From a virus: a stretch of 64,000 nt of DNA. Positions 1 through 16,993 of this stretch are shown piece by piece. Every line of letters starts with the position of its first letter. Within the stretch, counting starts at the first letter, position 1. Where the stretch lies: the IMG/VR virus record IMGVR_UViG_3300009506_000019, positions 1 to 64,000 of that record. One strand, given 5' to 3'. The notes below the pieces were generated by a model. That model ran no database searches. It was not told the origin of the DNA and saw only the letters and a list, made by a program, of their open reading frames with translations. Position numbers and translations under genes: made by a program.

Positions 1-44
1 GCCGCCGCACCCCTGCTGGCCAACCTGCCCCACTAAGGTCAACG

Positions 45-61
45 CGGCATGCGTCGTGCAT
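45..61 (+). promoter_or_regulatory. sigma54-type -24/-12 promoter CGGCATGCGTCGTGCAT
   Basis: GG-N10-GC spacing, intergenic, upstream of RBS and GTG at 107. Confidence 0.7.
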
Positions 62-106
62 CCTTCTTGGGTGTGCGGCGTGTGTCGCGCCTGAAAGGAG
101 AGCACG

Positions 107-346
107 GTGAACCCCATCACACAGCACGCGCAGCTGGCTCGAAGCCAGATGCCGAAAGGAAGCGGACCGCACCACCGGTCCAGAGGCGTGTTCGCGAAGC
201 CGCGAGCACACAACGGCAAGACCCGCCTCTTCACGAACCTGGACATCGTGAGGATGCGCCTGGCCGAAGGCGACAAGGCAGGTGCCCGTCGTCTGCTCGA
301 GGAAATCAAGTCCGGAGCCAAGAAGGCCCTGGCCGTAGCCGAGTAG
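107..346 (+). CDS. hypothetical basic protein
   Basis: AGGAG RBS, GTG start, phage-like codon usage. Confidence 0.7.
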   Translation: MNPITQHAQLARSQMPKGSGPHHRSRGVFAKPRAHNGKTRLFTNLDIVRMRLAEGDKAGARRLLEEIKSGAKKALAVAE

Positions 347-373
347 TCCACTCACAAACAGGAGAAAGCAACC

Positions 374-556
374 ATGAACCGTCCGTTTCGAAATCTCGAC
401 CTGGAGCTGCCCGAAGTGTACAAGAAGGCAGCTCAGAAGCGCCGTCGTCAGCTCAACATGGAGGCCAAGAAGATCGCTCCGGGAGCGCCGAGGGTGGCCG
501 TGGCTCGAAACGTGCTTGCGTGGCGTGAGGCGAACAAGCAGCGTCTCGGTCTCTAA
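374..556 (+). CDS. hypothetical basic protein
   Basis: AGGAG..GCAACC-ATG leader. Confidence 0.7.
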   Translation: MNRPFRNLDLELPEVYKKAAQKRRRQLNMEAKKIAPGAPRVAVARNVLAWREANKQRLGL

Positions 557-567
557 ACTGTAAGGTG

Positions 568-622
568 GTCAGTGGGAACGTATCCCCCTCCTCAGCCGGA
601 TCGTGGGAACGTTCCCACTGAC
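568..622. repeat. 14-bp inverted repeat with nested 16-bp palindrome
   Basis: GTCAGTGGGAACGT (568-581) / ACGTTCCCACTGAC (609-622); GTGGGAACGTTCCCAC at 603-618. Confidence 0.9.
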
Positions 623-649
623 TGCATATTTGTTCAACGAGTATTGTGG

Positions 650-825
650 TGTCTTGAGGTACGGACATTCAGGGTTGTATTGTCTCGAGCCTCAGACACG
701 GTGTCCGGAGGTCAAGACAGGTAAGGTATCGAGGGTCTTGAGCTGCAGACATGTTCCGTCGTCAAGACAGGGTATGTCTGGAATTCAAGACACTCGGAAT
801 CGAGAGATGTCGTTCCCACGAGACA
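650..825. repeat. array of seven 18-bp palindromic sites, consensus TGTCTTGA-NN-TCAAGACA
   Basis: copies start at 650, 681, 702, 734, 752, 775, 808; all end GACA; five start TGTC, one GGTC, one TGTT. Confidence 0.88.
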
Positions 826-844
826 CCAACAAGGAGGCTGTCAG

Positions 845-1147
845 ATGAGGCAATTCCGAATCGTCCAAGGAGGTAGAGGCGGGGACTATGAGCCATTTGC
901 CAGGTCAACAGCAACAACAGCCACCATCGACCTGGACATGACCGACCTCCACCAGAAGGTGCGGGAGTTCGAATCCACCGTCAGAGAGGTCATCGAGGGT
1001 GAGAAGCTGACCAAACGCGAATACGAACTCTTCGTCTTCATGGTGGCCCATTTCGCCGACGCCCACGAGATCTACAACGAGGAAATCCACGACGAGTGCT
1101 ATCTGCTCATGGGCAAAATCGAGAGAACCATGGGGAAGGGCAAATGA
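845..1147 (+). CDS. hypothetical protein
   Basis: AAGGAGG RBS. Confidence 0.75.
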   Translation: MRQFRIVQGGRGGDYEPFARSTATTATIDLDMTDLHQKVREFESTVREVIEGEKLTKREYELFVFMVAHFADAHEIYNEEIHDECYLLMGKIERTMGKGK

Positions 1148-1386
1148 GCATCAGGGCAAGCGACCGACTCGTCAACACCGTGCTCCCGGCCGGAGCCAGG
1201 GGACAACCCGCCAAAGGAGCCTACGGATGCCGGAAGGACAGCCGTGGACTCAAAGGATTCTACGAGCCCAAAGGCCACAGAAGAGGCAGGGTCGTAGAGT
1301 ACGTGGGAGAAGCTCTGGTGGAGTGGCTGATGGAGCAGGGGCGATGGGCAGAGGCAGAGGAGCTTCTGGATTCCCTGGGTGATTAG
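1144..1386 (+). CDS. hypothetical protein
   Basis: ATGA overlap with upstream gene. Confidence 0.65.
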   Translation: MSIRASDRLVNTVLPAGARGQPAKGAYGCRKDSRGLKGFYEPKGHRRGRVVEYVGEALVEWLMEQGRWAEAEELLDSLGD

Positions 1387-1452
1387 GACCAACAGGGGGA
1401 AGGACACCTGCTGGTAGAGAGAGGTATTGTACACTTGAACAAGGAGAGCATC

Positions 1453-1725
1453 ATGAGTCAGGACATCTGGGTTGGAATCCTCGAGTGCCCCGGAGGCTAC
1501 GAGGGAGGGCATACGTGGGTCGTCACGGGAAGTACGTTCGAAGAGGTGGCGAAGCTCCTCTGGGACGAGATGACCGCCGACGACACCAAAATCGCCGATT
1601 GGGAAGGCGTCGAGTGGGATTTCGAGCGCTTCCTGAAGGAGGAGGGCACCTACTGCGACGAGATGAAGACCCGGATTCTGCCCGCGAAGCTGGGGCAGGT
1701 CGTCAAACTCTTCCCGCAGGGCTGA
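1453..1725 (+). CDS. hypothetical acidic protein
   Basis: AAGGAGAGCATC-ATG. Confidence 0.75.
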   Translation: MSQDIWVGILECPGGYEGGHTWVVTGSTFEEVAKLLWDEMTADDTKIADWEGVEWDFERFLKEEGTYCDEMKTRILPAKLGQVVKLFPQG

Positions 1726-1728
1726 CAC

Positions 1729-1992
1729 ATGACGTTGAAACAGAAGCTCAAGGACTTCGTGCTGGTAGCCAACGACTACAGCGGGATTGAGTACGGGTTC
1801 AACACCCGAGTCAAGGGCTGGCAGGGGCAGAAGGCCATCGTCACCATCGTGGACCAGGACGACCCGGACACGGAGCAGGACGAAGTGCTATTGTCGTACG
1901 ATGGCGAGAACTACCGTATCGAAAACACGGAAGGCAAACTGCTGGCCACCACCCGATACCCCCGCGTCCTGTTCGCGATTCTGTACACGTAA
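1729..1992 (+). CDS. hypothetical protein
   Basis: tight operon packing, codon bias. Confidence 0.7.
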   Translation: MTLKQKLKDFVLVANDYSGIEYGFNTRVKGWQGQKAIVTIVDQDDPDTEQDEVLLSYDGENYRIENTEGKLLATTRYPRVLFAILYT

Positions 1993-2007
1993 CCAAGGAG
2001 AGCAACC

Positions 2008-2310
2008 ATGAGTTTGAAGGACAAAGTGCTGGTAGAGATCGAGAACCTGCGCGGCAACGCCAGGTTCCCGTCCGTGCTCGACATATGCTACAGCGGCGAG
2101 GCAACCGACTGCGCCAAGCGGCTGGGCGTGGGCCGACACGACACCGAGGAGGTCCTGACCGCCGTGAAACGGCTCCACGAAGACGGAAAGGTCAAATTCG
2201 TCTACCGCTGGGGCTATACCTGGGTGGTGCCGAGCTGGAAGAGCGACATCAAGGACGAAGAGCTGATCCAGAACCCGACTGATCGACCCTACAATTGGGA
2301 GGAGCTATGA
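2008..2310 (+). CDS. hypothetical protein, possible winged helix
   Basis: strong RBS; helix-turn-helix-like AKRLGV..EVLTAVKRLHEDGKV followed by a beta hairpin. Confidence 0.6.
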   Translation: MSLKDKVLVEIENLRGNARFPSVLDICYSGEATDCAKRLGVGRHDTEEVLTAVKRLHEDGKVKFVYRWGYTWVVPSWKSDIKDEELIQNPTDRPYNWEEL

Positions 2311-2699
2311 AATCTTCATTGAGGAAGCTCGAGAAGGCCATCAACGCGCTGCTCACGGAGAAGCAGAAACGCGAGATGGCCGAAGATGAGCAGGGAGTCA
2401 TGCTCGTGGACGAAAACAGTCCATGGGAGCACAACCCTGTGCTCTACGTCGGAGACGTGGCCGTGAAGCTGGGCGAGGATGACGACAATCTCCACGTCTG
2501 GACCGAATCGACCAAGGACGCCTACAGACTGTGTTCTCTCGACCCCAATCGGCCGATGGACGAACTGGCGAAGAAGGTCATTCGCTGTCTGAAGGCACCG
2601 TTCCCCTACGGAACCGCAGCAGCCAAGCGGTATCTCGAATGGAAGCGCCAGAATCCGGACATGGACGGATTCACGCCCAAGAAAGGGATTGATTACTGA
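2307..2699 (+). CDS. hypothetical protein
   Basis: GGAGG RBS, ATGA overlap. Confidence 0.7.
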   Translation: MKSSLRKLEKAINALLTEKQKREMAEDEQGVMLVDENSPWEHNPVLYVGDVAVKLGEDDDNLHVWTESTKDAYRLCSLDPNRPMDELAKKVIRCLKAPFPYGTAAAKRYLEWKRQNPDMDGFTPKKGIDY

Positions 2700-2890
2700 T
2701 GAGCAAACACCCACCCAGCAGCACGGAGATTCCGTTTAAGACGCCGAGCTTTTGCTTGAAGGTGATGTGTAGCACATGCAAGAGGGTCATGGGACAGAGC
2801 CAGGGCAAGTGGCGTCGATGCGGCAAGAATCAGGAAATCTTCATCTGTGACGACTGCAGGAGGAAAGACGATGCCAGCTATCGTTATTGA
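2699..2890 (+). CDS. small Cys-rich (zinc-ribbon-like) protein
   Basis: CxxC...CxxC, TGATG coupling. Confidence 0.55.
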   Translation: MSKHPPSSTEIPFKTPSFCLKVMCSTCKRVMGQSQGKWRRCGKNQEIFICDDCRRKDDASYRY

Positions 2891-3137
2891 CGGCCGAAAG
2901 CTCAGCGAGGCTCAAATCCGCGCTAAGGCCCAGAAGCAGCTGAATCAACCCAGCCTCGAAGAGGATCTGGGCGGTGGACCGGGCGACCACGGCTTCATCC
3001 TTCACGGAGATCGCCTCTTTTACTACCACGTCGCATCGGTCAAAAGAGGATTCTACGTGGCGTCAACTAATGAGATGTCACCCAGCCAGACCAGACCCCT
3101 GGTCAAAGCGTACCTCAAAGAAAGGAAGATCCGATGA
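2871..3137 (+). CDS. hypothetical protein
   Basis: AGGAGG RBS. Confidence 0.65.
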   Translation: MPAIVIDGRKLSEAQIRAKAQKQLNQPSLEEDLGGGPGDHGFILHGDRLFYYHVASVKRGFYVASTNEMSPSQTRPLVKAYLKERKIR

Positions 3138-3547
3138 AGAGCATGCATGAGCAACTCGTAAACGCCACCAAGGTGCCGGAGGTGGACTTCTTCGCCCAAC
3201 TCGCGGCCGAACTCGTGATGGCCGGAGTCAAAATCGTGCCGGAGAGGTGGTGGATGCGTCTGGGCGATTGGCTGGGCGAGAACTACACCATCTTCGACGA
3301 GCCCGAAATCCACGACCTCAACGGATTCACCCACCACGAGAACCACGCCAGAAGCCAACCCCACGAGAGCTGGCAGTGGGACACCTTCAGCCAGATGAAG
3401 GGAGCCTGGGTGATTCCGGTCGAGGAACTCATCTGCCTCTACGACAACGACCCCAACGCCTGTGACTTCGTGAGTATCAACAGACTGACCTTCGTCGGCA
3501 CCGAAGAGAAGCTGGAAGAGGCAATCATGGAGATTCTCAGAACATGA
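3134..3547 (+). CDS. hypothetical acidic protein
   Basis: ATGA coupling. Confidence 0.7.
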   Translation: MKSMHEQLVNATKVPEVDFFAQLAAELVMAGVKIVPERWWMRLGDWLGENYTIFDEPEIHDLNGFTHHENHARSQPHESWQWDTFSQMKGAWVIPVEELICLYDNDPNACDFVSINRLTFVGTEEKLEEAIMEILRT

Positions 3548-3915
3548 AGACATGGCTTGCGACGTACACGCACACCGTGGATGACTGCTGGTCGGTGAGC
3601 GCAATCGGCAACACCGAAGAGGAGGCCAAGGCTAACCTCCTGGCAAAGCTCAACTCAGATCCAAGCGAAACGTTCACGGCCGAAGAATACGAGGAAGACG
3701 GCGATTTCGAAGTCGAAGAGCTTCCTCTGGGTAACAGCTTCTGGGAGGTCGGATTTGGGTACGACTCGTTCACCCGATTCTGTCTGGCCGACACCGAAGA
3801 AGAAGCCAAAGCCAAGTTCATAAGTATGACCAAGAAAGTGCTCGATAACGCAGAAGAGCCTGGTTGGGAAGAGAATGTCTGGGCTGTCGAGTCAAGCGAT
3901 AGGTGGATGCCATGA
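3544..3915 (+). CDS. acidic protein with internal tandem duplication
   Basis: GNTEEEAKA and ADTEEEAKA repeats. Confidence 0.7.
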   Translation: MKTWLATYTHTVDDCWSVSAIGNTEEEAKANLLAKLNSDPSETFTAEEYEEDGDFEVEELPLGNSFWEVGFGYDSFTRFCLADTEEEAKAKFISMTKKVLDNAEEPGWEENVWAVESSDRWMP

Positions 3916-4181
3916 AGGTAACTCAATACTACACCAACATCAAGACTGAGGAATGGGTCATCCTGTCGGTTGGAGAGGATGGCGACGCCATGCTCGAGGA
4001 TGGCTACAAGCGAGAGTGCTCGAACACCTGGTGGCCAGATGGCAAGGAGCCCAAGACTGACGACGAGTGGGACGATCGCTACGAAAAATTCGTGGGTGGT
4101 GACATCACAACCGAAGAGGTTAGCCTCACGAAGATGAAAGGGCTGGTTCACGAACACATCGGCATGCACACCAACTATTAA
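3912..4181 (+). CDS. hypothetical acidic protein
   Basis: ATGA coupling. Confidence 0.7.
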   Translation: MKVTQYYTNIKTEEWVILSVGEDGDAMLEDGYKRECSNTWWPDGKEPKTDDEWDDRYEKFVGGDITTEEVSLTKMKGLVHEHIGMHTNY

Positions 4182-4232
4182 GGCGTACCATCTGGCGAGC
4201 CTTGATCGTGAGGCTCGCCACATGGCATGCTT

Positions 4233-4249
4233 TGACATGGCCCTTGCAT
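4233..4249 (+). promoter_or_regulatory. degenerate sigma54-type promoter TGACATGGCCCTTGCAT
   Basis: intergenic, TTGCAT -12 element plus T-rich tail, but GA in place of GG at -24. Confidence 0.35.
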
Positions 4250-4289
4250 CTCTTGTCTGTGTACCGGGTGTGATCATCAGGAGGTAAGC

Positions 4290-4478
4290 TTGACAATCCA
4301 AGTCAAAGGCGTACGTATCGACTTTCACGCTACCCACCACGCCACCTATCAGTGGGGAGCGACATTCATATGGCCAAATGGCCGGAAGACCTACGGAGAG
4401 TATCGAACCGTGGGCGAAGCAATCGAATCAGCCAAAACTCACCAAAAGGAGAGCAACCATGACCAAAATGCTGAATGA
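4290..4478 (+). CDS. hypothetical protein
   Basis: AGGAGGT RBS with TTG start. Confidence 0.6.
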   Translation: MTIQVKGVRIDFHATHHATYQWGATFIWPNGRKTYGEYRTVGEAIESAKTHQKESNHDQNAE

Positions 4479-5112
4479 CGGTCGAGCCTGCACAGCTGCC
4501 GTCAACGACATGATGGCACAGGCCCAGGAACGACGCTGGATGCCAGAGATGATGGGCGAGCGCCAGTTCATCAAGTTCGGCTTGATTTTCGGCCACTACG
4601 ACAGCCGAGGAGGAGCCTGCTTGCTGGCCGATCCCAACATCATCAACGGAATGCGTCGCTATAACGAGGCGTGCGGCTGGGAGCCAGACGACAACTGCGC
4701 GTTCGAAGACCTGCAGAATTGTTCGCAGGGCCACATCGAGATCGCGGTGGTCGGAGGCGAGCTGACAGAGGGCGAGCTGCTCCACAACTACAGCGACGAG
4801 GGAGGCTTCGTCCTCTTCAGGGTGGAGACCCGCTACGACAACAAGCTGCAGGAAGACGGCAACCCGGACTGGACCGACTGGCAGGAACAGCCATGGGCCG
4901 TGCTCGTGAAGCTCACCGAAGAGCAGCAAAAGAAGCTCGACGACTTCTACAACGAGGACGGCGACGAAGAGAATGGCAAGCTGCTGATGGCGGAAGTCCT
5001 CAAGGATGTGGACTTCGTGAGCTGGGATGGCGGAGTCCTCAGACAGCAGTACCGCTTCACCGAATGGGACGTGGGCGAAGACGCCTGCGGTCTTTGCAAC
5101 CTGGGAGTCTGA
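4459..5112 (+). CDS. hypothetical acidic protein
   Basis: AAGGAGAGCAACC-ATG. Confidence 0.75.
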   Translation: MTKMLNDGRACTAAVNDMMAQAQERRWMPEMMGERQFIKFGLIFGHYDSRGGACLLADPNIINGMRRYNEACGWEPDDNCAFEDLQNCSQGHIEIAVVGGELTEGELLHNYSDEGGFVLFRVETRYDNKLQEDGNPDWTDWQEQPWAVLVKLTEEQQKKLDDFYNEDGDEENGKLLMAEVLKDVDFVSWDGGVLRQQYRFTEWDVGEDACGLCNLGV

Positions 5113-5113
5113 C

Positions 5114-5455
5114 ATGACGATGTGGCACATGCGCTGCGAGTACGACCACGGAAAGATCGTGGACCTGGATGACCAGCTGGCCGACAATCCAGGAGAGGCG
5201 ATCAAAAAGACGTTCTCCAGTCCGGACTGGTATCTGCATCGGATCACCGAAGACCCGTATCAGCCGTGCTGGCACTTCAAGCTCAAGGACGCCAAACTCA
5301 CGGTGTACGTGTGGGAGAACGATAGCGTCTGCCCGGAGTGCGGCGCGGAAGATCCGTTCAAGCCCAACAAAGAGTATTGCGCCACGTGCCGATCGGAAGC
5401 ATACGAGACCGTGCGGGACGCGGAAATCCGAGCTGGTTGGGATCCCACGCCATGA
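5114..5455 (+). CDS. hypothetical protein with C-terminal zinc ribbon
   Basis: CPEC...CATC. Confidence 0.7.
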   Translation: MTMWHMRCEYDHGKIVDLDDQLADNPGEAIKKTFSSPDWYLHRITEDPYQPCWHFKLKDAKLTVYVWENDSVCPECGAEDPFKPNKEYCATCRSEAYETVRDAEIRAGWDPTP

Positions 5456-5841
5456 GTGAAGATATCATCAGCATGAATACGGACTACTGCGCCAAGTGTG
5501 GCGCAGAACACGACTACATGAGCGGTCCGTGTGAGAAATGCGGTAGCCACGTCTTCACCAAGGAGAAACCGCACAAGACCTACGGTGTCTACAAGTTCTA
5601 CAAGGACGGAGCCTGTAACGACAGCCCGTACATCGCCATCTTCGAAGATGAGGATGACGCAAAAAAGGCGGTAGAGGTGCTGGAAAAGCTGCGGCACGAC
5701 AACCGACGTGACATGGCCTTTGCATGTAACGAGGGTTGGGAATTCCGGTGCTACTGGACCTACGAGGAGGTACCAGCACCCAAGACGTTTGACGAGTTCA
5801 TGACTCACGTAAACGAAACACTGGAGGAGTGTGATGGCTGA
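5452..5841 (+). CDS. hypothetical protein with N-terminal zinc ribbon
   Basis: CAKC...CEKC. Confidence 0.7.
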   Translation: MSEDIISMNTDYCAKCGAEHDYMSGPCEKCGSHVFTKEKPHKTYGVYKFYKDGACNDSPYIAIFEDEDDAKKAVEVLEKLRHDNRRDMAFACNEGWEFRCYWTYEEVPAPKTFDEFMTHVNETLEECDG

Positions 5842-6268
5842 CAGAGGAAAAAGACGCCGAAAGAATCGACCAAGAAGCAGAAGTAAGAAAGAGAAGTTGT
5901 TCGCCATCGTGCACGACGGCACGTTCGAAGGCGACAGCAACTACCAATGTCCAGGAGAAAAGATTCCGTACAAAGACGGACAGACCTGGAACGAAATCAA
6001 AGAAGCCTTCCTCAAACAGAGGATGAAAGATGAGGGCTATGACGACGTGGCCGAGTTCATCGAAGAATTCGGCTATGACAAGATAGCTGGTGCCTGGGTC
6101 GTGACCGAGAAACAGTTTGAGATGATCGAGCTGGTCTGGGAATCCGACCCCGGCTGCGACAGTGCGGTCTACACGTGCAACTACACCGCCAAGTGCATGG
6201 CCGAAAAAGCGTGCGTCGCCTATCTCGGCAAGAAGCCCAAGATGCACGACAGAAAGAAGTGGTACTGA
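5834..6268 (+). CDS. hypothetical protein
   Basis: GGAGG RBS. Confidence 0.7.
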   Translation: MADRGKRRRKNRPRSRSKKEKLFAIVHDGTFEGDSNYQCPGEKIPYKDGQTWNEIKEAFLKQRMKDEGYDDVAEFIEEFGYDKIAGAWVVTEKQFEMIELVWESDPGCDSAVYTCNYTAKCMAEKACVAYLGKKPKMHDRKKWY

Positions 6269-6621
6269 TGTTAGTCTGCAAGAAGTGTGGGAGTCCGGAC
6301 ATCAACGTGGCGATGTGGGCCAACCCCAACACCAACGAGTTGATGGTTGATGGCGAACCGCTCTTCGACTACAACCAGGCACCGAAGAACATCTGCGTTC
6401 AATACTGCAACATCTGCGATGAAGAATGCGAAGTCGAAGAGAAGAAAGAGTTCGTCGCCATCAAGCCTTACTTCGGCGGGAGAAAGGTGAAGCTCGAGCT
6501 GATGTATACCTCCAAGCTCGAAATGGTGGTAAAACGTAAGGGCGAGCGTGAGTTGTTCACCCGCGAGGATGAAGAGGAAGCGTGGGCTGACAGCGAGGGT
6601 AAGCGCTGGCTGGAGGTCTGA
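6268..6621 (+). CDS. hypothetical protein with zinc ribbon
   Basis: CKKCGS...CNIC, TGATG coupling. Confidence 0.7.
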   Translation: MLVCKKCGSPDINVAMWANPNTNELMVDGEPLFDYNQAPKNICVQYCNICDEECEVEEKKEFVAIKPYFGGRKVKLELMYTSKLEMVVKRKGERELFTREDEEEAWADSEGKRWLEV

Positions 6622-6633
6622 AGGTAGTTAATT

Positions 6634-6650
6634 CGGCACGTGTCCTGCAT
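6634..6650 (+). promoter_or_regulatory. sigma54-type promoter CGGCACGTGTCCTGCAT
   Basis: GGCAC -24 element, GG-N10-GC, intergenic. Confidence 0.8.
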
Positions 6651-6702
6651 ATCTTTTGTGTGGGCCACCAATGGCCGTTTTCAAGCTGAGAGGAGAGCAA
6701 TC

Positions 6703-6927
6703 ATGGAGATGCAAGAAGTATCGTCATCGAACATCAGGCTGATTGGCTACGACGAGGCCAACAAGACGATGGGTGTCGTGTTTCACAGTGGCAACCTCTA
6801 CCACTTCTTTGACGTGCCAAAAGAAGTGCACGACGAGCTGGTGGAAGCACCGTCCGTGGGCAGGCAGTTCAACACCAGCGTGCGCGACCAGTACGAGTAC
6901 GAGGACAAGGGACCGTACAGTGGGTGA
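6703..6927 (+). CDS. KTSC domain protein
   Basis: VSSSNIRLIGYD...VFHSG.LYHFFDVP..V...L..APSVGRQFN matches the KTSC pattern. Confidence 0.9.
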   Translation: MEMQEVSSSNIRLIGYDEANKTMGVVFHSGNLYHFFDVPKEVHDELVEAPSVGRQFNTSVRDQYEYEDKGPYSG

Positions 6928-7120
6928 CACGTGGTACTGCCCAGGCTGCGGCTTCGGGACGGACAACCCAGGTATCGCCAGGGAGCACGAGTGTCCTGCA
7001 TCTGAGCTGGATATGGCTGACTGGTACTGCCCAGACCACCCGGACGGATTCAAGGAATTCGACGGCGAGCATTGGGTTTGCATCGAATGTGGCGAGCCTC
7101 TGCAGGAGAAACCCAAGTGA
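6920..7120 (+). CDS. small Cys/His-rich protein
   Basis: WYCPGC, WYCPDH, CIEC. Confidence 0.55.
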   Translation: MGDTWYCPGCGFGTDNPGIAREHECPASELDMADWYCPDHPDGFKEFDGEHWVCIECGEPLQEKPK

Positions 7121-7398
7121 GAACGTACAAAATCACAGCAGTCAGCTGCGATTGGAAGGATCGCTACGAACCCAAGCACCTCAATCAGTGCCTGCAGTTC
7201 GTCGGAAACGGAGCGCGATTCACCGACGTAGAGAACACTGGCTCTGACCAGTACGTCACCATCTGCGCCAGCCCACCTGTAACACCAAAACAGGCACAGC
7301 GCCTGTTTGACGTGGGAGACTTTCACGTCTGCGACAATTGGGAGGGCACGATGGATCAAATCCTGCGAAAACTCAGACTACGAGCGAAGGGACTCTGA
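7117..7398 (+). CDS. hypothetical protein
   Basis: AGGAG RBS, GTGA overlap. Confidence 0.65.
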   Translation: MRTYKITAVSCDWKDRYEPKHLNQCLQFVGNGARFTDVENTGSDQYVTICASPPVTPKQAQRLFDVGDFHVCDNWEGTMDQILRKLRLRAKGL

Positions 7399-7880
7399 TG
7401 AGCTGGTACATTCTGAAAGCCGGGTATCACCACAACAACCCGTCACCGTCCTGGTATCACAATATCCAGGCCGAATCCAAGGATGAGGCTCTGTTGGAAG
7501 CATACAGAGAACTCATCAGGTCTCTGACCCACGACCAGGCATCGATTCCGGACATCAGTGCCATCCTCACCCAGAACGAGCTTGCTATCGATGTCTACGA
7601 TGAAGAAGAACTTGTGGGTGACGAGGAGTACGCCACCCAGATCGTCATCTGGAAGACAATCGATCATGCTGGCGATGTCTGCATGGGTGTGGGCTTTGGA
7701 ACAAGCTCGTCCAGCACAGACAAGTACGAAAATGTTTGGATTGAGGAGCTGGAGCCGAGGAAGAACACCAAGGAACACCTGGTTCAGGCAATCCTCGGTC
7801 ACAAGGGCTACCTGGACAGACTGCCCAAGCCACTGCTTCAACAGATCGCAAACGAGCTAGCTGCCAGAGCGGAGAGGTAG
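7398..7880 (+). CDS. hypothetical protein
   Basis: TGATG coupling. Confidence 0.7.
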   Translation: MSWYILKAGYHHNNPSPSWYHNIQAESKDEALLEAYRELIRSLTHDQASIPDISAILTQNELAIDVYDEEELVGDEEYATQIVIWKTIDHAGDVCMGVGFGTSSSSTDKYENVWIEELEPRKNTKEHLVQAILGHKGYLDRLPKPLLQQIANELAARAER

Positions 7881-8090
7881 ATGTACGTCGTCACAGCGGA
7901 AAAAACAGGTAAATTCGAAATCTACAACCAACGGCGAAAGAAAGTCGTGTTCAAAGGTACAGACCGCATGATGAAGGCGAAGGCTGGTACCTCATACGAG
8001 TTCGCTAGCTGTGACGACATGCTGGCCACGCTCTGCAAGTGGGTATCGATCTCCACGTTTCGCAAAGTCACACGGATGCTAAGACCATGA
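7881..8090 (+). CDS. hypothetical protein
   Basis: GAGG RBS, abutting start. Confidence 0.6.
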   Translation: MYVVTAEKTGKFEIYNQRRKKVVFKGTDRMMKAKAGTSYEFASCDDMLATLCKWVSISTFRKVTRMLRP

Positions 8091-8263
8091 AGAGATTGCT
8101 GGACAGGATCATCCCACCGGAAGACAGAATGGCTATGGACTTTTGTTGGCAGATTGCCTACAAGCCTATCCTTCTGGGACTTATAACAGTGGGTCTAGCC
8201 ATCGCTTTCTTAGGATCTTACGCCTACTTTGCCTACTACTTTTTCACAACCAGCCCTTGCTGA
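8087..8263 (+). CDS. small membrane protein
   Basis: one long hydrophobic segment. Confidence 0.55.
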   Translation: MKRLLDRIIPPEDRMAMDFCWQIAYKPILLGLITVGLAIAFLGSYAYFAYYFFTTSPC

Positions 8264-8271
8264 ACCACACG

Positions 8272-8288
8272 CGGCACGGGCCGTGCAT
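8272..8288 (+). promoter_or_regulatory. sigma54-type promoter CGGCACGGGCCGTGCAT
   Basis: GG-N10-GC followed by TCTTTT, intergenic. Confidence 0.8.
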
Positions 8289-8344
8289 TCTTTTGTGGTG
8301 GTGGATCCCTCTCACGAGGAAGACAAACACGAAAGGAACCAGGA

Positions 8345-8551
8345 ATGAAAGCCAAGCTCATCGTCGCGTACACCGATAACACCTGGACCGACAAGCTCGT
8401 CGAAGTGCCAGATGGCGTTGTGCCCGACAAGTATTATCGAGGCAGCGTCAAGTGGACGCAGGCAGTTCTGAAGTGGGCGACCGAGAATGCGGATCTCGGC
8501 AAAGAAATCGAGTACGTCGGCATGCTCGATGCGAATCCAGAGGAAGAATAA
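8345..8551 (+). CDS. hypothetical protein
   Basis: RBS, downstream of promoter motif. Confidence 0.7.
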   Translation: MKAKLIVAYTDNTWTDKLVEVPDGVVPDKYYRGSVKWTQAVLKWATENADLGKEIEYVGMLDANPEEE

Positions 8552-8931
8552 TGGACGACGCATTCTTCAGGAAGCTCTCACCGAGTGAAGAGCAGGAATT
8601 CCGGGAGTGGGCGAGGGAGAACTTCGATCCACAAAAGGACGCCGATCCGTGCTGGCACCCGTGCGTGCACGACGAGTGGGCCAAGCTCAAGCGCAACGAT
8701 GTGGGCTTCTTCTATTTCGAAGCTCAGACCGGCATCATCCGGGAGAAGCGGCCGATGGCACCAAGCAACTTCCACAACTACAGGCTTCCCAACCTCCTGA
8801 TGGGTACGGTGAAGGAAGCCGTAGAATCGGCCACGGTCGGACCACACGGCTTGCAGTACAAACACGAACGCGACTTCCTCGCAGACCTCGAGGAGTACGA
8901 CACGGAGACCAACAATGACGGCACCAGATAG
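8551..8931 (+). CDS. hypothetical protein
   Basis: TAATG coupling; FREWAREN..WHP.V motif. Confidence 0.7.
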   Translation: MDDAFFRKLSPSEEQEFREWARENFDPQKDADPCWHPCVHDEWAKLKRNDVGFFYFEAQTGIIREKRPMAPSNFHNYRLPNLLMGTVKEAVESATVGPHGLQYKHERDFLADLEEYDTETNNDGTR

Positions 8932-9361
8932 CTTCGATGGCTGCGCAGGCGACTGGCTACAGTTCAAGGCGTGGCTCAAAGAGAATCATCTGAAGGGCAA
9001 TGACATGCTGGGCATGGGCATTGACGACACTGGCTTTGTGGCCTTCAACCAGAGCCACATCGTCAAAGAACGTCCGGATTTCCCGTATGTCAGACCAGAG
9101 GTCGTCAGAATCATCCAAGATCCAGATGACGACCCAAGCTGTTATATTCATCTGGTGGATGAGTGCAACGCTAGTCCGATTCAGATGCAGATCTCATGGT
9201 CACGCCATTTCTTCCTCCCCATCGAAGAAGCGGACTACTGCATCTGCGAGGAATGCAAAAAGCTCATCCCGGACGACGACATCAGACGCTTTCGTTTCGA
9301 GGCTGGGAACCGCTACACTCTCCCGAGGATCTGCGATGACTGCGCAGAGAAGGTGAAGTAG
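8915..9361 (+). CDS. hypothetical protein with C-terminal zinc finger
   Basis: CEEC...CDDC. Confidence 0.7.
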   Translation: MTAPDSFDGCAGDWLQFKAWLKENHLKGNDMLGMGIDDTGFVAFNQSHIVKERPDFPYVRPEVVRIIQDPDDDPSCYIHLVDECNASPIQMQISWSRHFFLPIEEADYCICEECKKLIPDDDIRRFRFEAGNRYTLPRICDDCAEKVK

Positions 9362-9367
9362 ATAACG

Positions 9368-9799
9368 ATGACGATTAGCTCGTTCGATGGGGAATACCAA
9401 TTCCTCAGCAACTTCTTTCCAGTAACTGTATTCCTGGATGGCGAGTGCTACCCATCGGTTGAGCACGCATATCAGGCAGCAAAAACCACCAACCCATACG
9501 AACGTCAATTCATCAAAGATATGAAAACACCCGGCAGAGCCAAACGTGCTGGTCGTCACCTCATGCTACGTGAAGATTGGGAGCTGATAAAAATCAGCGT
9601 CATGCACGACTTATTGCGCCAAAAATTCAGCCACGAAACGCTGCGCAAACGACTACTGGCCACAGGAGATGAAAAGCTGGAAGAAGGCAACACCTGGAAG
9701 GATTACTTCTGGGGTGTTTGCAACGGAATCGGACAAAACCAGCTTGGCGTGTTGTTGATGCGCGTGCGAGAGGAAATAAGGCACTGTGAGAAAACCTGA
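9368..9799 (+). CDS. NADAR (YbiA-like) family protein
   Basis: FLSNF, YPSVEHAYQAAK, LREDW, LLATG, LEEGN.W.DYFWG, NQLG.LLM.VRE. Confidence 0.93.
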   Translation: MTISSFDGEYQFLSNFFPVTVFLDGECYPSVEHAYQAAKTTNPYERQFIKDMKTPGRAKRAGRHLMLREDWELIKISVMHDLLRQKFSHETLRKRLLATGDEKLEEGNTWKDYFWGVCNGIGQNQLGVLLMRVREEIRHCEKT

Positions 9800-10091
9800 T
9801 CCACAAGAACTCGCCAAGTGGGAACGCTGGGCGAAAAACCACGGATGGCGCTGTCTTGGCAGGGCAGTTGCATACATCCGGAAATTGGAGGGCAACATGA
9901 AGCTTGCATTCAGTCTCAATGAACTCAAAATCATGCACGACACGGTGTGCACCCACGAAGAGATGGCAGGAGACGATCCTGAGAGCTTTGGTGATCAGGG
10001 TGAGTACACCACTCTGCGTAAGAAGCTGAAAGACGCCATCGATCACATCGAGAAAGAAGCAGTCATACAGGCCGAGGTAGCCGATGGCTGA
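9786..10091 (+). CDS. hypothetical protein
   Basis: operon packing. Confidence 0.6.
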   Translation: MRKPDPQELAKWERWAKNHGWRCLGRAVAYIRKLEGNMKLAFSLNELKIMHDTVCTHEEMAGDDPESFGDQGEYTTLRKKLKDAIDHIEKEAVIQAEVADG

Positions 10092-10386
10092 ACTCACCAA
10101 AATGGAGAGGCTGCGACACTTCGTCAACGCGGCTCACAACTACGCTGCTGTTGAGTACAAATGCACTGTCACCATCCTCCAAGAGTACAAAGAGGATAAC
10201 TATGTGGTGGTCGCAATGTACGACTCAGAATGCGACCCGGAAACAGATGATCCGACGTGCATGGCCACGCTCTCCGTCACCAGCGCAGAAGTCCCGTTCA
10301 ACTGTAACTTCGTATTGAACAGGGATCCAGGACAACACGCCCTCCTCAAACAACCAGCCGATCTATTCCGACTGATGTACGCATAG
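10084..10386 (+). CDS. hypothetical protein
   Basis: GAGG RBS. Confidence 0.7.
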   Translation: MAELTKMERLRHFVNAAHNYAAVEYKCTVTILQEYKEDNYVVVAMYDSECDPETDDPTCMATLSVTSAEVPFNCNFVLNRDPGQHALLKQPADLFRLMYA

Positions 10387-10453
10387 TAAACCAGACAACT
10401 GGTTAAGCTATACATCCTCACCAGGTCATCCTTAACATTGGAGCAAGGGAATA

Positions 10454-10834
10454 ATGCGACACGGAAAAGGCAAGGGCAAGGGCAGAGACCGCAACGACAA
10501 CCAAGAGCGCACTTACCAGCCTCGCGAATGGACGCTGGCGGAAACGCTCGAGAAAGGACGGATCAGAGTAGAAATCACCACTTCTCGCAACCAGAATGGC
10601 ACCAAGATGCACTCCGTGTCGATTCGCAAGAAGATTTTCGACCGTGACGGTGAACCGGTCATCGACTTCGAAGGGAAAGAGAAGACGACCGGATTCTTCC
10701 GTCGCGAAGACATGGCCGACATCGGTGAGCTGGCTATTGAGGCTCAACGGTGGATTGATGCTGACAAGCATGAGGATCAACAGTCCAAGTCGGCTCAAAA
10801 CGGAAGGAAGAACCACGCGCAGCCGCGTGCGTAA
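10454..10834 (+). CDS. putative PC4/SpoVG-like single-stranded nucleic acid binding protein
   Basis: beta-rich core SVSIRKKIFDRDG...TGFFRREDM followed by a C-terminal helix. Confidence 0.45.
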   Translation: MRHGKGKGKGRDRNDNQERTYQPREWTLAETLEKGRIRVEITTSRNQNGTKMHSVSIRKKIFDRDGEPVIDFEGKEKTTGFFRREDMADIGELAIEAQRWIDADKHEDQQSKSAQNGRKNHAQPRA

Positions 10835-10841
10835 CTAAGGC

Positions 10842-10858
10842 TGGCACGGCGTCTGCAT
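10842..10858 (+). promoter_or_regulatory. sigma54-type promoter TGGCACGGCGTCTGCAT
   Basis: TGGCACG -24 element, GG-N10-GC. Confidence 0.82.
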
Positions 10859-10924
10859 TCTTTGGGGGTGTGTGGGCGTCGTGCCCGTTAATTCGTAACC
10901 CAATCTCACGAGGAGATGACAACC

Positions 10925-11464
10925 ATGGCAAAGATCAAGATCAGTGCGCTGGCAGACAGGCTCAGCATGGACCCGAAGGCCGTCATCGCCAAGCTGGCAG
11001 AAGCTGGCATCCAGGCGAAACGACGCGACAGCTCAGTCGATGAGACCGCCGCTCTCGCGGCTCTCGGAACGGCACCCGCTTCAGCTCCGGCCGAGCAGGG
11101 AGCGGAGGTGGTGAGCCTGGACCAGGCACGCGAAAAGAAGGCATCGAAACCGAAGAAGGAAAAGACGCCGAAAAAGCCGAAGTCCGACAGCGACGATTGG
11201 TACAAGAAGTACCCGTGGGTCGTGAAGGGCAGCGTGCGCGAGCCGACCTCAGCCGACCGCAAGGCTCTGGGCTCGCGATGTCACGGCAAGGTGTGCACCG
11301 TCCGATGCGTGGACAGCGGAGTGGAGCGCGTGGTCAACACGCAGGACGCTTTTCAGTCCAAACGCTGCCCGGACGCGCAAAAGGCGTACATGCGTCGCCG
11401 ACGTGCCGAGCGCCGTCAGGCCCGCAAGGATGCCAAGGCAGCCAAGAAAGCCAATCACAGCTAG
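10925..11464 (+). CDS. IF2-N-like domain fused to a novel basic domain (paralog of 21581-21937)
   Basis: KIKISALADRLSMDPKAVIAKLAEAGIQAK..SSVDE resembles the IF2 N-terminal motif; C-terminal domain shared with the 21581 ORF. Confidence 0.65.
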   Translation: MAKIKISALADRLSMDPKAVIAKLAEAGIQAKRRDSSVDETAALAALGTAPASAPAEQGAEVVSLDQAREKKASKPKKEKTPKKPKSDSDDWYKKYPWVVKGSVREPTSADRKALGSRCHGKVCTVRCVDSGVERVVNTQDAFQSKRCPDAQKAYMRRRRAERRQARKDAKAAKKANHS

Positions 11465-11487
11465 CAGCCAGAGCTAGCAAACCAGAG

Positions 11488-11542
11488 GACAGCTCGCCTC
11501 CAACCCTACCCGCTCTCCGGGGTTGGAGGCGACTGTCTTTCT
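11488..11542 (+). terminator. intrinsic terminator-like hairpin
   Basis: GACAG(C)TCGCCTCCAACCC / GGGTTGGAGGCGACTGTC followed by TTTCT. Confidence 0.75.
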
Positions 11543-11628
11543 GATGGAGGTAAGAGATGCTGGTGCTTGCCACACATAGTACGATGCCAAGCCTCAACAT
11601 CTGTTGGTCTTCATCACAGGAGGAACCG

Positions 11629-11916
11629 ATGATCCACGAACGACTCACGTGCGAACAAACAATCAAGACTGAAATCACCTTGGAATTGAATCATGTAGCC
11701 TTGAGACAACTGTTGGTGGAAGCTGGATATAAGCTGCCCGAGGATGTAAAGTTCAAGGTATACCGACCAGGCATCAGCGACGATCCAGGCTGCGATGTTG
11801 ACATTGACTTCGATACCATGGTCAATGTCGTCTGGACGGACACAAAGACCAGGTGTGAAGACTTCGATTCGCAGCCGGAGATCAAAGAACAAATCGAATT
11901 GGCCGGATGGAAATGA
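11629..11916 (+). CDS. hypothetical protein
   Basis: AGGAGG RBS. Confidence 0.7.
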   Translation: MIHERLTCEQTIKTEITLELNHVALRQLLVEAGYKLPEDVKFKVYRPGISDDPGCDVDIDFDTMVNVVWTDTKTRCEDFDSQPEIKEQIELAGWK

Positions 11917-12176
11917 GGCTCAGCGAGAAACAATACGCCAAGGTCCTGGCTGTAAATAAGGACCACTGCCGGTGGATAATCTCCACCGTCACACGCATAT
12001 TCGGCACGATCCGTGAATGGATCGGCATAGCGTATCCGCCCGACGATGTGGAGCTGGTAGCTACCGTGAGAATCTACCGATCAAAAGACAACAGCTATTT
12101 CATCAAACTCGGCAACCACGCATCCTACACAGCGGGCTATTGGTTTGAACAAACTCACAAGGGAGAGCAATCATGA
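11913..12176 (+). CDS. hypothetical protein
   Basis: ATGA coupling. Confidence 0.6.
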   Translation: MRLSEKQYAKVLAVNKDHCRWIISTVTRIFGTIREWIGIAYPPDDVELVATVRIYRSKDNSYFIKLGNHASYTAGYWFEQTHKGEQS

Positions 12177-12718
12177 CAAACTTCAATCGAGAAAGGATCA
12201 GGCAAGACCTGACCTTCAATCCGGACATGAGCCTGCATCAGGCTTTCATGGATCTGGCGTATGACGGATGGAACCAAGGTGGGGCAGAGCACTGGTCCTA
12301 TCAGGACATGCTGAACAACGCACGCTACGTCTACGGAGAGATCGTAGAAATGGCCGTCATGTTGGGCAACTACAACTACCAAGTCGAAAATGGCGGTCAC
12401 ATGCAGTATTTCGACAACGGCTACGCCAGCGAGGGCAAAGACCCGTACGCCGACAAGGACTGCATGATGGTCAGCCGCCTCATCACCCTCATGGACAAGC
12501 ACGGCATCGCCAAGACCGAGCTGGGCAAAAAGGTACGCGAGCTGCTCTGCGAATTCCAAGTCCGTACATCCTGCTGTGACGACCCGATGGATGAGGAATA
12601 CGGAGCCGACTACGACGACCTGGACAGCCAGTATTATAACCTCAACAAGCAATGGATGGCAGAACTCGAATCCTTCCTCAAGGGCTGGATGGAAAAGAAC
12701 GAGAACCCACTGTCATGA
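12173..12718 (+). CDS. DMP19/DUF4375-like acidic protein (putative DNA mimic)
   Basis: QVENGGHMQYFDN motif, acidic C-terminus with DLDSQYY. Confidence 0.65.
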   Translation: MTNFNRERIRQDLTFNPDMSLHQAFMDLAYDGWNQGGAEHWSYQDMLNNARYVYGEIVEMAVMLGNYNYQVENGGHMQYFDNGYASEGKDPYADKDCMMVSRLITLMDKHGIAKTELGKKVRELLCEFQVRTSCCDDPMDEEYGADYDDLDSQYYNLNKQWMAELESFLKGWMEKNENPLS

Positions 12719-12966
12719 AAGTAACCAGACGCAGAGTGGGTGGAACGATGGACTTCCACCCCAAGACTCCAGAGGAGCGAATTGCTGCATTCCGGCAAAT
12801 CGTGGACGACAAGGCGTACGCCAAGATCGATGGCTGCATGATCGATCTGTTTAGCGCCAACTACGTAGTGCAGGTGTACGACGCTCTGAACGAGACCAAC
12901 AAGCAGAAATTCGCGAGCCGCATGGCACCGCTCATGGCCAACATCGCATTCAAGCTGGTGAAGTGA
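12715..12966 (+). CDS. conserved phage hypothetical protein
   Basis: IDLFSA..VVQVYDALNE.NK.KF motif. Confidence 0.7.
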   Translation: MKVTRRRVGGTMDFHPKTPEERIAAFRQIVDDKAYAKIDGCMIDLFSANYVVQVYDALNETNKQKFASRMAPLMANIAFKLVK

Positions 12967-12967
12967 C

Positions 12968-13192
12968 ATGGGGGAACTCAGCAAACAACAAATACTGAAC
13001 CTGGCCAAGAATGCGGCCAAGTACGAGTTTGGCAGCCACGGTCTATTCGGCATCAATGGACCCACCGAGTTCTTCTTCGAATTGGAGAAGATAGACAACA
13101 TCGAAGACTTGCGTGCATTTGTAGAGGTCTTTGCAGCAGAGATGCGAGCCAGACTCTACAAGATGTGGAAGGAGCAGTGGACCAATGTGTAA
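12968..13192 (+). CDS. hypothetical protein
   Basis: operon packing. Confidence 0.6.
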   Translation: MGELSKQQILNLAKNAAKYEFGSHGLFGINGPTEFFFELEKIDNIEDLRAFVEVFAAEMRARLYKMWKEQWTNV

Positions 13193-13520
13193 CGGAGAGC
13201 GCTGTAAGACCAAGGAGGAGAGACTAGCCGTCATTCGTGAACTGGCTGGTTGCCTCAACCTGGATGGCTTCACCATCGATCGTGACAAGCTCATGGATGT
13301 GTGGGCTGCCATTCACTTTCATCCTGTCATCTGCGCAAGGATTCTGTTCCCTGACCGACCCAAGCGGTACGTATCTGTCACCCAGGACCTTGGCAACTAC
13401 GCATGCAACAAATCGTGTGCAATGGGACTCAGGCTCGAGGGTAAAATCAACAACGCTTTCGCCTATGAGCACGCATGCGAAATGATCTACAAAGATCTTC
13501 CTGCTTGGGCGAGGTGGTAA
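13185..13520 (+). CDS. hypothetical protein
   Basis: AAGGAG RBS; ends CEMIYKDLPAWARW. Confidence 0.7.
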   Translation: MCNGERCKTKEERLAVIRELAGCLNLDGFTIDRDKLMDVWAAIHFHPVICARILFPDRPKRYVSVTQDLGNYACNKSCAMGLRLEGKINNAFAYEHACEMIYKDLPAWARW

Positions 13521-13521
13521 C

Positions 13522-13854
13522 GTGAAAACAGTGCTATTCGTAGACGATGAAGTTCCAATCCTGTATGCCATCAAACGCAACATGAAGGTCCATAGGGATC
13601 AAATCCGATGCCTGTTCACTTGTGACGTGGACACTGCCATCTATCTTGTTGATCAAGTTGACATGGTAGTAACCGACTGGACAATGCCGGGTGGCAGTGG
13701 ACGAGACGTAGTGGATAAGTGCAAACAGATGAACGTGCCAGTCATCGTGAGTAGTGGCGATGACCTCACCATCGATGTGCCGCACATAAAAAAGCCATGC
13801 ATAGCGCAGATTCCAGACGCTGTGGCACGTGCTCTGCATCTCTTGGATCTATAG
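13522..13854 (+). CDS. stand-alone response regulator receiver (CheY-like)
   Basis: LFVDDE, VVTDWTMPGGSG (phospho-acceptor Asp), VIVSSG, KKP. Confidence 0.9.
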   Translation: MKTVLFVDDEVPILYAIKRNMKVHRDQIRCLFTCDVDTAIYLVDQVDMVVTDWTMPGGSGRDVVDKCKQMNVPVIVSSGDDLTIDVPHIKKPCIAQIPDAVARALHLLDL

Positions 13855-13864
13855 GAGGAGTACC

Positions 13865-14362
13865 ATGGCGCACAACAAGAAGTGGGACAACGACAGCAAG
13901 CTGTCCGACTGGTTTGAGAAGCAACTAAACGAGCTGGACGAATGGGGCGGAGAAGGCTCATCCATCGACGCTATCGGCAACTGTGTGAGCGACGACCACA
14001 TGTTCTCGTACTGTTACGAGGGCCTGGGTAAGGAAATAGACACCAACGACTACATCAACGCGGCTATCGATTTTGGCATGGATGTGAAAGACAACAAAAT
14101 CTTTCACTTCTACTTCCGAAGCGTCAACTTCTACTTCCTGGCTCGTAACAAGACCGAATTCAAGCACATGATCCTTGCGGCCATCAAAGAGTGGAAGGAC
14201 GGCTGCGAGCCCATCGAGAGGGAAGAGCCACAGCCGCCACGTGATGAGGTGATGGAGTCTCTCCTCAAAGACATCTACTCACACGTGAGAGATCCGAAGG
14301 GACGAAACGACATCGAAACCAATTGGTGCGAACGTATTGAGGCACTTGGACTAGGCAAATGA
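13865..14362 (+). CDS. hypothetical acidic protein
   Basis: AGGAGG RBS. Confidence 0.7.
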   Translation: MAHNKKWDNDSKLSDWFEKQLNELDEWGGEGSSIDAIGNCVSDDHMFSYCYEGLGKEIDTNDYINAAIDFGMDVKDNKIFHFYFRSVNFYFLARNKTEFKHMILAAIKEWKDGCEPIEREEPQPPRDEVMESLLKDIYSHVRDPKGRNDIETNWCERIEALGLGK

Positions 14363-15243
14363 GGTACTGGCTCAGCATAGACTTCGACTACTTCGTGCGT
14401 GAAGAGTCGATTTGGGATTGGGGACACCGCGAGGCTCCTCTCTTCCGCGATTTCCTGTGGCAGCCACGAGTCCAAGGCTTCCTCCACAATGGAGTCGATC
14501 TACGCAAGGAGATGGACCCACAAGCATTCGCCAAACCCACACCAGACCAGTTTTGGAAGGCACTGGAAGAACGCGGACTCAACATCTCCAGAGCCACAAG
14601 GCTAATCGTGGCAGACTCCCACACATGGGGTGCCGTGGTCTTTGGAGCCTGGTGGCCAGGCAAGGTGCCAAAAAACCATCGTACACTCCTTAGCTTCGAT
14701 GCTCATCATGACTTGGGCTACTCACAACACAATGCCAGAGATACAGTTGAGAGCCAAAACATAGACTGTGCGTCATGGTTGTTGTGGGTTATGCATCAGT
14801 GGAAACACCTGCAAGCTCGAATCATCTATCCACCGTGGCGTGGACTGGAGGAATGGAAGTATTCGGAGCCGTCATTCAAAGGCTTCTTCTACGGTGACGT
14901 GCGTAAAAGGGTAAACGCCAGCGTATGGGATGACGATATTCCGTCCGGTGAAGTTGACCAGATCTACATTTGCCGATCAGGATCTTGGGTCCCACCCTGG
15001 CTCGACAACCAATTCATCAAGTTCGTGCGGGAGTTGGAGAGTAAGACACTCGCAGATGTCGAAGTCCCATTCATCGATGATGAACATTGCAACCCGATGG
15101 AGCCGCGAGACTTCGATTATGACGCCTTGTGTGAGCAAGCGGAAAGAACGCAAGAGGTCATGCAATCCTTTGCTGATCCAGACTCCGCAATCCGCAAGGA
15201 ATACAGAAAGTTGATGAAAATCAAGAACCAGGAGGAGATGTAA
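14359..15243 (+). CDS. UPF0489/arginase-deacetylase-fold-like metal-dependent hydrolase
   Basis: LSIDFDYF, DSH, FDAHHD, ICRSGSWVPPWLD. Confidence 0.65.
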   Translation: MRYWLSIDFDYFVREESIWDWGHREAPLFRDFLWQPRVQGFLHNGVDLRKEMDPQAFAKPTPDQFWKALEERGLNISRATRLIVADSHTWGAVVFGAWWPGKVPKNHRTLLSFDAHHDLGYSQHNARDTVESQNIDCASWLLWVMHQWKHLQARIIYPPWRGLEEWKYSEPSFKGFFYGDVRKRVNASVWDDDIPSGEVDQIYICRSGSWVPPWLDNQFIKFVRELESKTLADVEVPFIDDEHCNPMEPRDFDYDALCEQAERTQEVMQSFADPDSAIRKEYRKLMKIKNQEEM

Positions 15244-15644: not shown

Positions 15645-15662
15645 TCTCACAAGGAGGCAACC

Positions 15663-16464: not shown

Positions 16465-16469
16465 ATCTA

Positions 16470-16486: not shown

Positions 16487-16512
16487 TCTTTTGGTGTATA
16501 GGAGGACTGTAC

Positions 16513-16965: not shown

Positions 16966-16993
16966 TCTATTATCTCACAGGAGGAGAGCAATC

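Follow-up and report, generated by a model that had tools for sequence, protein, structure and literature searches.

Seven imperfect palindromes of 18 bp each, packed into 176 bp near the start of a large phage genome (positions 650-825), constitute what is, judging from the sequence, close to certainly a protein-binding DNA element. Our tentative preference, held at clearly less than even confidence, is that this array docks a host regulator of the NtrC/TyrR class and acts as an enhancer. A replication origin ranks second and a repressor operator third; the docking and operator readings need a binding protein of one and the same kind, and both could be true. The phage has a dozen sigma-54 promoters but no gene for an activator, and its activator-type sites form a single dense cluster. 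Should this cluster be an enhancer, it would illustrate how a phage begins infection with a sensor-activator borrowed from its host, tell which host factor to seek and provide a compact, portable multi-site enhancer, and this among phages running on sigma-54 promoters, which to our knowledge have barely been studied. If it is an origin, it would mark the replication start in a family of DnaE-replicated large phages for which we know of no origin.

The window analysed here is the first 64 kb of a contig of 166,061 bp, of linear class and with a CheckV completeness of 100% according to its IMG/VR record. Plus-strand genes occupy about the first 34 kb and minus-strand genes the rest of the contig, and both contig ends (position 1 of the window and genome positions 166033-166061) fall inside a gap between diverging genes. 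The replication gene set comprises a DnaE-type polymerase, a primase-helicase, a UvsX-like recombinase, an SbcC-like protein and an NAD-dependent ligase. The polymerase shares only about 30% identity with those of the closest GenBank phages, and neither near nor distant DNA searches of GenBank phages with positions 1-4000 or 300-1500 returned a match.

The sites start at 650, 681, 702, 734, 752, 775 and 808, just as the initial annotation had placed them, and the array sits inside the gap 557-844 between genes 374-556 and 845-1147. Five of the seven (650, 681, 702, 775 and 808) keep the core TGTC-N10-GACA exactly, and the other two miss one core base each (GGTC at 734, TGTT at 752). These five are the only exact cores in the 64-kb window, where shuffles predict 1.74, and they make up half of the 10 found in the whole genome (166 kb). 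GACA/TGTC density peaks at 648 with 13 per 200 bp, compared with a genome mean of 1.9 (sd 1.4) and a runner-up of 9; site density and shuffle counts together rule out chance clustering. When the seven sites are turned into a weight matrix, no comparable site appears in the rest of the 166-kb genome: the best match outside the array lies within a gene and scores 16.6, below all seven sites (17.9-26.6). Likewise, the ideal palindrome has 19 matches in the genome with up to four mismatches, six of them in the array, and with up to three mismatches all four matches are in the array.

The consensus first put forward, TGTCTTGA-NN-TCAAGACA, captures the type of palindrome but is idealised: the actual sites each show 1 to 5 mismatches to it over 16 positions. 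When uniformly oriented, the sites are made up of a TGTCTYGA half and a weaker half, mostly of TGTCYG type. The strong half is on the left in site 1 (650-667; TGTCTTGA, matrix score 26.6), site 2 (681-698; TGTCTCGA, 22.5) and site 4 (734-751; 23.4), and on the right in site 3 (702-719; TCAAGACA, 25.9). Site 6 (775-792) comes nearest to the ideal palindrome, with one mismatch of 16. The weak or marginal members are site 5 (752-769), which abuts site 4 and scores 19.9 in the matrix and 11.4 in leave-one-out, and site 7 (808-825), which has the weakest inner match around its exact core, a leave-one-out score of 7.2 and a reverse copy of the 9-mer GTGGGAACG inside it.

The helical phasing described in the initial annotation stands as well, with moderate significance only (P about 0.01-0.05) and with 752 as the sole off-phase site. 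Among periods of 5-25 bp, 10.5 bp fits best, with a Rayleigh R of 0.82; against random non-overlapping placement P is 0.025 for all seven sites, and for the best six of seven R is 0.96 with a P of 0.01. Apart from 752, the sites share one face of the helix, in steps of 21 bp and of 31-33 bp.

The array reads as a DNA element rather than as part of a protein or an RNA. Open reading frame 603-848, whose translation had been raised as something that could constrain the repeats, has a codon score of -0.11 per codon (real early genes average 0.59, with a minimum of 0.27), a GC3 of 0.55 versus 0.72 and no ribosome site; it looks non-coding, so translation is no explanation for the repeats. The plus-strand RNA of 640-835 folds at -81.4 kcal/mol (z = -5.5 against shuffles) and some of its pairings run 3-4 bases past the 18-mers (730-752 with 774-796, and 647-668 with 807-828), as would fit a long 5' leader or a small RNA whose copies pair with one another. 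However, the opposite strand folds equally far beyond its own shuffles (z = -5.9), as inverted repeats in general would, conservation falls on the outer TGTC/GACA rather than on the paired inner bases, the array has no match in Rfam and helical phasing is a property of duplex DNA, which together make a structured RNA very improbable. With the reading frame non-coding and both strands folding equally, the array is therefore taken as a DNA element.

In the docking reading, the double-stranded array would bind a regulator, most likely a host protein, that is dimeric, has a Fis-type helix-turn-helix and belongs to the sigma-54 enhancer-binding proteins of the NtrC/TyrR class. Its dimers would bind cooperatively along one face of the DNA to give one or two activator rings, which, by DNA looping, would set off sigma-54 RNA polymerase poised at the early promoters, beginning with the one nearest to the array (P46). 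Bound protein lying across the entrance to the strain-specific genes 845-1386 may also gate them. The three-turn spacing and one-face phasing of the sites favour this, as do the non-coding reading frame, the equal folding of both strands and the lack of an Rfam match. In the case of NtrC, several dimer sites are known to nucleate the activator ring, and the NtrC enhancer of glnAp2, with its five sites, resembles the phage array in having several dimer sites whose helix face matters. Natural NtrC sites differ, however, in lying upstream of the promoter and in their sequence, TGCACC-N5-GGTGCA, and we know of no enhancer that carries as many as seven sites.

The promoters that such a regulator could serve are plentiful. 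Twelve strong sigma-54-type promoters (tGGCACG-N4-nTGCATt) lie at 46, 6635, 8273, 10843, 13824, 16471, 16950, 21443, 22006, 23667, 26328 and 31642, all on the plus strand, all in short gaps 5' of genes and often with a T run just after. P46 (46-62, plus strand; GGCATG-N4-GTGCAT, score 30.2) lies 590 bp upstream of the array and reads towards it; the next nearest are at 4234 (weak) and 6635, so that P46 is the only one within 3 kb. Together with its counterpart at 1971 in a relative (the contig L017, considered below), it forms a distinct subclass, GCGGCAT-N-CGT-NN-TGCATC. Sigma-54 promoters always depend on an ATP-driven activator. No gene with a Sigma54_activat, HTH_8 or Sigma54_DBD domain was found in the phage genome and no upstream dyads common to the other 11 sigma-54 promoters were seen, and it is this combination of twelve promoters, no activator gene of the phage's own and no local sites elsewhere that speaks for docking. 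Small inverted repeats were also observed 30-50 bp 5' of the promoters at 6635, 10843, 13824, 16471, 21443, 23667 and 31642, and the operon borders look like a unit of a hairpin followed by a promoter.

The phage does encode a stand-alone CheY-like receiver domain (13522-13854, plus strand, 110 aa; 11621-11974 in L017), in which the acidic pocket, phospho-acceptor Asp and Lys-Pro motif are all retained, and which could act on host two-component or sigma-54 activator signalling. At its most ambitious, the docking reading would make the array a single genome-level hub, from which a host activator of PAS or NtrC type, possibly switched on with the help of the receiver protein, fires all 12 early promoters over 32 kb. 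We regard this as improbable; were it true, all early transcription of the phage would depend on a single docking site for a single host sensor protein.

The sequence of the sites points towards the same class of regulator. For the sigma-54 activator GlrR/QseF, the consensus in the literature is TGTCN10GACA (PMC3045617), a form of TGT-N12-ACA. This agreement strengthens the link to NtrC/TyrR-family sites that the initial annotation had drawn from TGT-Nx-ACA dyads, and the core is also seen at PAS-type sigma-54 activators of marine gammaproteobacteria. The glmY gene has three GlrR sites at upstream distances above 100 bp, and IHF is required for its activation (PMC3045617). As read from the E. 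coli sequence, these sites are 32 and 64 bp apart, carry gTGTC...GACAc flanks and serve the promoter TGGCACAGTTACTGCAT. They share with the phage array the core, its spacing, the G/C flanks, the steps of about three turns (32/64 bp against 31-33 bp) and the tie to sigma-54 promoters of the TGGCAC-N5-CTGCAT type. On the other hand, the three E. coli sites are 116-229 bp upstream of the start and accompanied by IHF sites, whereas the phage has seven sites and neither a downstream promoter nor an IHF consensus, and the inner bases are AGACA/GGACA in the phage but CGACA at the E. coli GlrR sites.

A scan of viral contigs and bacterial genomes for clusters of three sites returned at least 239 clusters. 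Among the matches listed, 192 of 239 are regular tandem arrays, with 21-23 bp as the commonest periods, and 47 are irregular. The irregular ones listed are of three kinds: PpsR-like triplets (TGTCA...TGACA) in genomes of Rhodobacterales, Erythrobacter and Sphingomonas, sets of activator sites, and viral arrays inside initiator genes. The second kind is found in Marinobacter (L173) and Motiliproteus (L254 and L256), where each locus has three sites adjoining a PAS-Sigma54_activat-HTH_8 gene, at 60-75 bp from a sigma-54-like promoter driving dehydrogenase or CoA-transferase genes. These sets are like the phage array in their irregular TGTC-N10-GACA sites, their steps of 20-35 bp, their marine habitat and their G+C of about 52%, and this identity of core and spacing, here and in GlrR/QseF, is a main argument for docking; they differ from it in adjoining an activator gene and a sigma-54 promoter, since the phage array has neither.

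The L254 sites (TGTCTTGATATCAAGACA, TGTCTTGATTTCGAGACA and TGTCTGCTTTTCAAGACA), which are almost restricted to their own locus in a 4.7-Mb genome, come closer still, sharing with the phage consensus the TTGA/TCAA inner bases and the pattern of strong and weak halves. Yet one family sharing the phage's inner four bases is what chance would be expected to yield among the 239 array families listed. The match is not significant alone and could be due to chance, and given how many families were screened, Motiliproteus is a lead for the host and not a finding. Across the 239 arrays listed, a sigma-54-like promoter is close by in only four, which also tells against docking. Other matches were set aside: the perfect palindrome TGTCTTGA-NN-TCAAGACA occurs in viral contigs as five lone single sites, taken as chance; very similar boxes between monooxygenase and transporter genes in three soil contigs (L260, L267 and L270) were uninformative; and a two-site pattern scan of metagenomes gave 16 unrelated matches and no relative of the phage.

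The main weakness of the enhancer reading is that no sigma-54 promoter follows the array, the nearest being 0.6 kb upstream. None lies 60-250 bp downstream, and over 560-845 the promoter matrix scores at best below -8, compared with 21-39 at the real promoters. An enhancer 0.6 kb downstream of its own promoter would be unusual; relocated enhancers can act from downstream or over kilobases. It also counts against docking that the IHF consensus WATCAR-N4-TTR is absent from both strands of 1-1200, that the inner bases are unlike those of the E. coli GlrR sites and that relatives do not conserve the array; some enhancers, however, work without IHF or another bending site. The reading is further weakened by the irregular arrays with the same core that sit in initiator genes of other viral contigs. 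The interpretation in the initial annotation is partly supported: the twelve sigma-54-type promoters and the activator-type motif agree with it, but neither a promoter downstream nor an activator of the phage itself was found to back the step to a super-enhancer.

Comparison with relatives bears on all of these readings. Homologues of the trigger factor led to relatives at 75%, 62% and 55% identity, and searches of viral contigs with DnaE or trigger factor gave one distant match or none. Conservation in related phages had been suggested as a check on the array, and the array is absent from every relative reached. The 55% relative (L017), an ENA contig of 174.6 kb, was followed to its left end and keeps the gene order loosely; its matching gap holds no repeat array but a 17-bp perfect hairpin and a 280-bp A+T-rich gap, and it is without genes 845-1147 and 1144-1386. 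In the 62% relative, as judged from the gene map only, three abutting genes leave no gap at the matching position. A search with the GGYEG-gene family found near-identical short contigs whose sequence begins a little 3' of the array, and further members of the family on other short contigs. We conclude that the array is strain-specific and that two extra genes come with it.

L017 nevertheless provides a precedent for docking. It has 13 sigma-54-type promoters within 19.9 kb (680-19397), some of them a perfect TGGCACG-N4-TTGCA. Three ATTGTATG-NN-CATACAAT palindromes at 506-583 lie 115-175 bp 5' of its first two tandem sigma-54 promoters (680-761), which are near-perfect and each lie within a GCCAGATCTGGC palindrome. 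This is a classical enhancer layout, and it follows that the phage family does put dyad clusters near early sigma-54 promoters. At its end (1-95) the L017 contig itself carries a 14-bp tandem repeat in six copies. Within this phage family, three independent assemblies all stop within about 2 kb of one place, which may be a real genome end or a repeat that breaks assemblies, and sequence upstream of P46 is possibly missing from our contig because the three stop near there.

The immediate surroundings of the array offer several further features. Directly 3' of gene 374-556 there is a long hairpin (565-625, plus strand; -39.8 kcal/mol, z -5.4) with 14-bp perfect arms (568-581 and 609-622), built around a 16-bp perfect palindrome (603-618, GTGGGAACGTTCCCAC), for which a terminator, an RNA processing site or an origin palindrome are all possible. 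Four of the six genomic copies of the 9-mer GTGGGAACG fall between 572 and 820, the one within site 7 at 811-819, and the 9-mer could represent a second binding motif or a site of RNA processing. A short A+T-rich spacer (623-649) separates the hairpin from the array; the 30-bp window from 626 has 33% G+C, the joint lowest of the first 7 kb, but the stretch is short, and by nearest-neighbour energy others are less stable.

Beyond the array, which ends 19 bp 5' of its start codon, gene 845-1147 (plus strand, 100 aa) has an AAGGAGG ribosome site at 831-837 and encodes an acidic orphan, with no relatives in viral contigs or among 5.8 billion proteins. The following gene, 1144-1386 (plus strand), is a paralogue at 33-40% identity of gene 107-346, the first gene of the phage, whose family has a member at 2035-2301 in L017. 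The model of this family, a disordered basic tail and a helical hairpin (pLDDT 66), shows no DNA-binding fold, and the family was rejected as the protein that binds the array. No DNA-binding family was found among the array's neighbours, which encode proteins of 60-100 aa, and searches of the phage genes for candidate binders found no ParB, HTH_3, HTH_8 or Phage_rep_O.

The strongest competitor of docking, though in itself a doubtful one, is a lambda-type origin in which the seven imperfect inverted repeats are the iterons of a phage initiator. This protein would bend the DNA into a wrapped complex and open the A+T-rich stretch beside the hairpin palindrome. Lambda and Stx phage origins consist of 4-6 imperfect inverted-repeat iterons of 19 bp beside an A+T-rich region (PMC7466680). 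Two unrelated viral contigs, L061 (295-445) and L110 (702-865), carry five irregular TGTC-N10-GACA sites inside an ORF with an N-terminal HTH_36, followed in L061 by a Toprim/AAA_25 primase-helicase as the next gene, and by analogy these arrays look like lambda-type origins using the same core; it is such arrays inside initiator genes that keep the origin alternative alive. The phage array resembles both groups in its imperfect inverted repeats of 18-19 bp (4-6 in the lambda family), its irregular spacing and possibly its A+T-rich neighbour. The iteron-like look of the regular tandems among the arrays listed, the phasing and uniqueness of the array, the joint lowest G+C of the flanking 30 bp within 7 kb and the adjoining large palindrome would all fit an origin, and so would its position, with gene orientation and cumulative GC skew diverging at a point 0.65 kb away.

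That skew, however, simply tracks the direction of transcription at the array, and the A+T-rich stretch is short and not uniquely unstable. In the lambda family, L061 and L110 the sites lie inside the initiator gene, with a helicase or primase gene next, whereas the phage array is intergenic, among tiny genes and 40-50 kb away from the replication genes. No initiator gene holds or flanks it: of the small neighbours without a DNA-binding family one is acidic and another is modelled as a helical hairpin, Phage_rep_O is absent and the sole HTH_36 signal is sub-threshold and 86 kb away. Moreover, relatives with the same replication genes lack the element, L017 having no repeats and the 62% relative no intergenic space at all.

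Somewhat less likely again is an array of repressor operators, in the manner of PpsR/CrtJ or TyrR, lying over or downstream of a weak sigma-70-type promoter and shutting off or roadblocking read-through into genes 845-1386 and the 5.8 kb of genes that follow. TyrR operators mix strong and weak boxes, as the phage array does, and in PpsR/CrtJ and TyrR systems alike the boxes are TGT-N12-ACA palindromes, bound cooperatively; the phage sites may likewise overlap a sigma-70-type promoter. A candidate promoter of this type, TTGAGG-N18-TATTGT (654-683, plus strand), is covered by sites 1 and 2. It matches 8 of 12 positions of a sigma-70-like consensus that may not be the host's, and no promoter was reported in the gap by a stricter scan (9/12). 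If the strong hairpin that precedes the gap terminates transcription, a promoter would be needed there. Most other operon borders are a small hairpin and then a sigma-54 promoter, and here the array takes the promoter's place and ends close to the start codon. The two extra genes accompany the array in presence and in absence, as though all had been inserted as one regulated cassette.

PpsR is known to bind TGTcN10gACA palindromes (PMC5747161), and PpsR-like triple sites were found in the Rhodobacterales, Erythrobacter and Sphingomonas, as described above. These sites, however, favour TGTCA over the TGTCT/TGTCC of the phage, and PpsR/CrtJ and TyrR regulation uses two or three boxes where the phage has seven, which seems excessive for two small genes. 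The weakness of the promoter is a further difficulty, and no repressor gene was found, HTH_3 being absent and the neighbours being without a DNA-binding family.

A packaging or partition site, a decoy for a host regulator or no function at all seems quite unlikely: the array is 650 bp from the contig end, close to where the three assemblies end, and many replicated genomes with seven sites each could titrate a scarce regulator, but there is no ParB gene, no terminase nearby and no terminal repeat found by IMG/VR on the phage contig, and the clustering is too dense for chance.

Two further observations concern control regions and repeat arrays elsewhere. In the phage genome, three overlapping sigma-54-like motifs on both strands (85013-85060) lie beside a 422-aa ORF (86099-87367, minus strand) whose sole signal is the sub-threshold match to HTH_36, and this may be a second control region with a DNA-binding protein. 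A metagenome contig of 1.8 kb (L262) carries at 100-520 a TGTCTTG...AAGACA array with a 24-bp period, followed by four tandem repeats of about 27 bp and a 258-aa ORF without a family, and may represent the origin of a small replicon.
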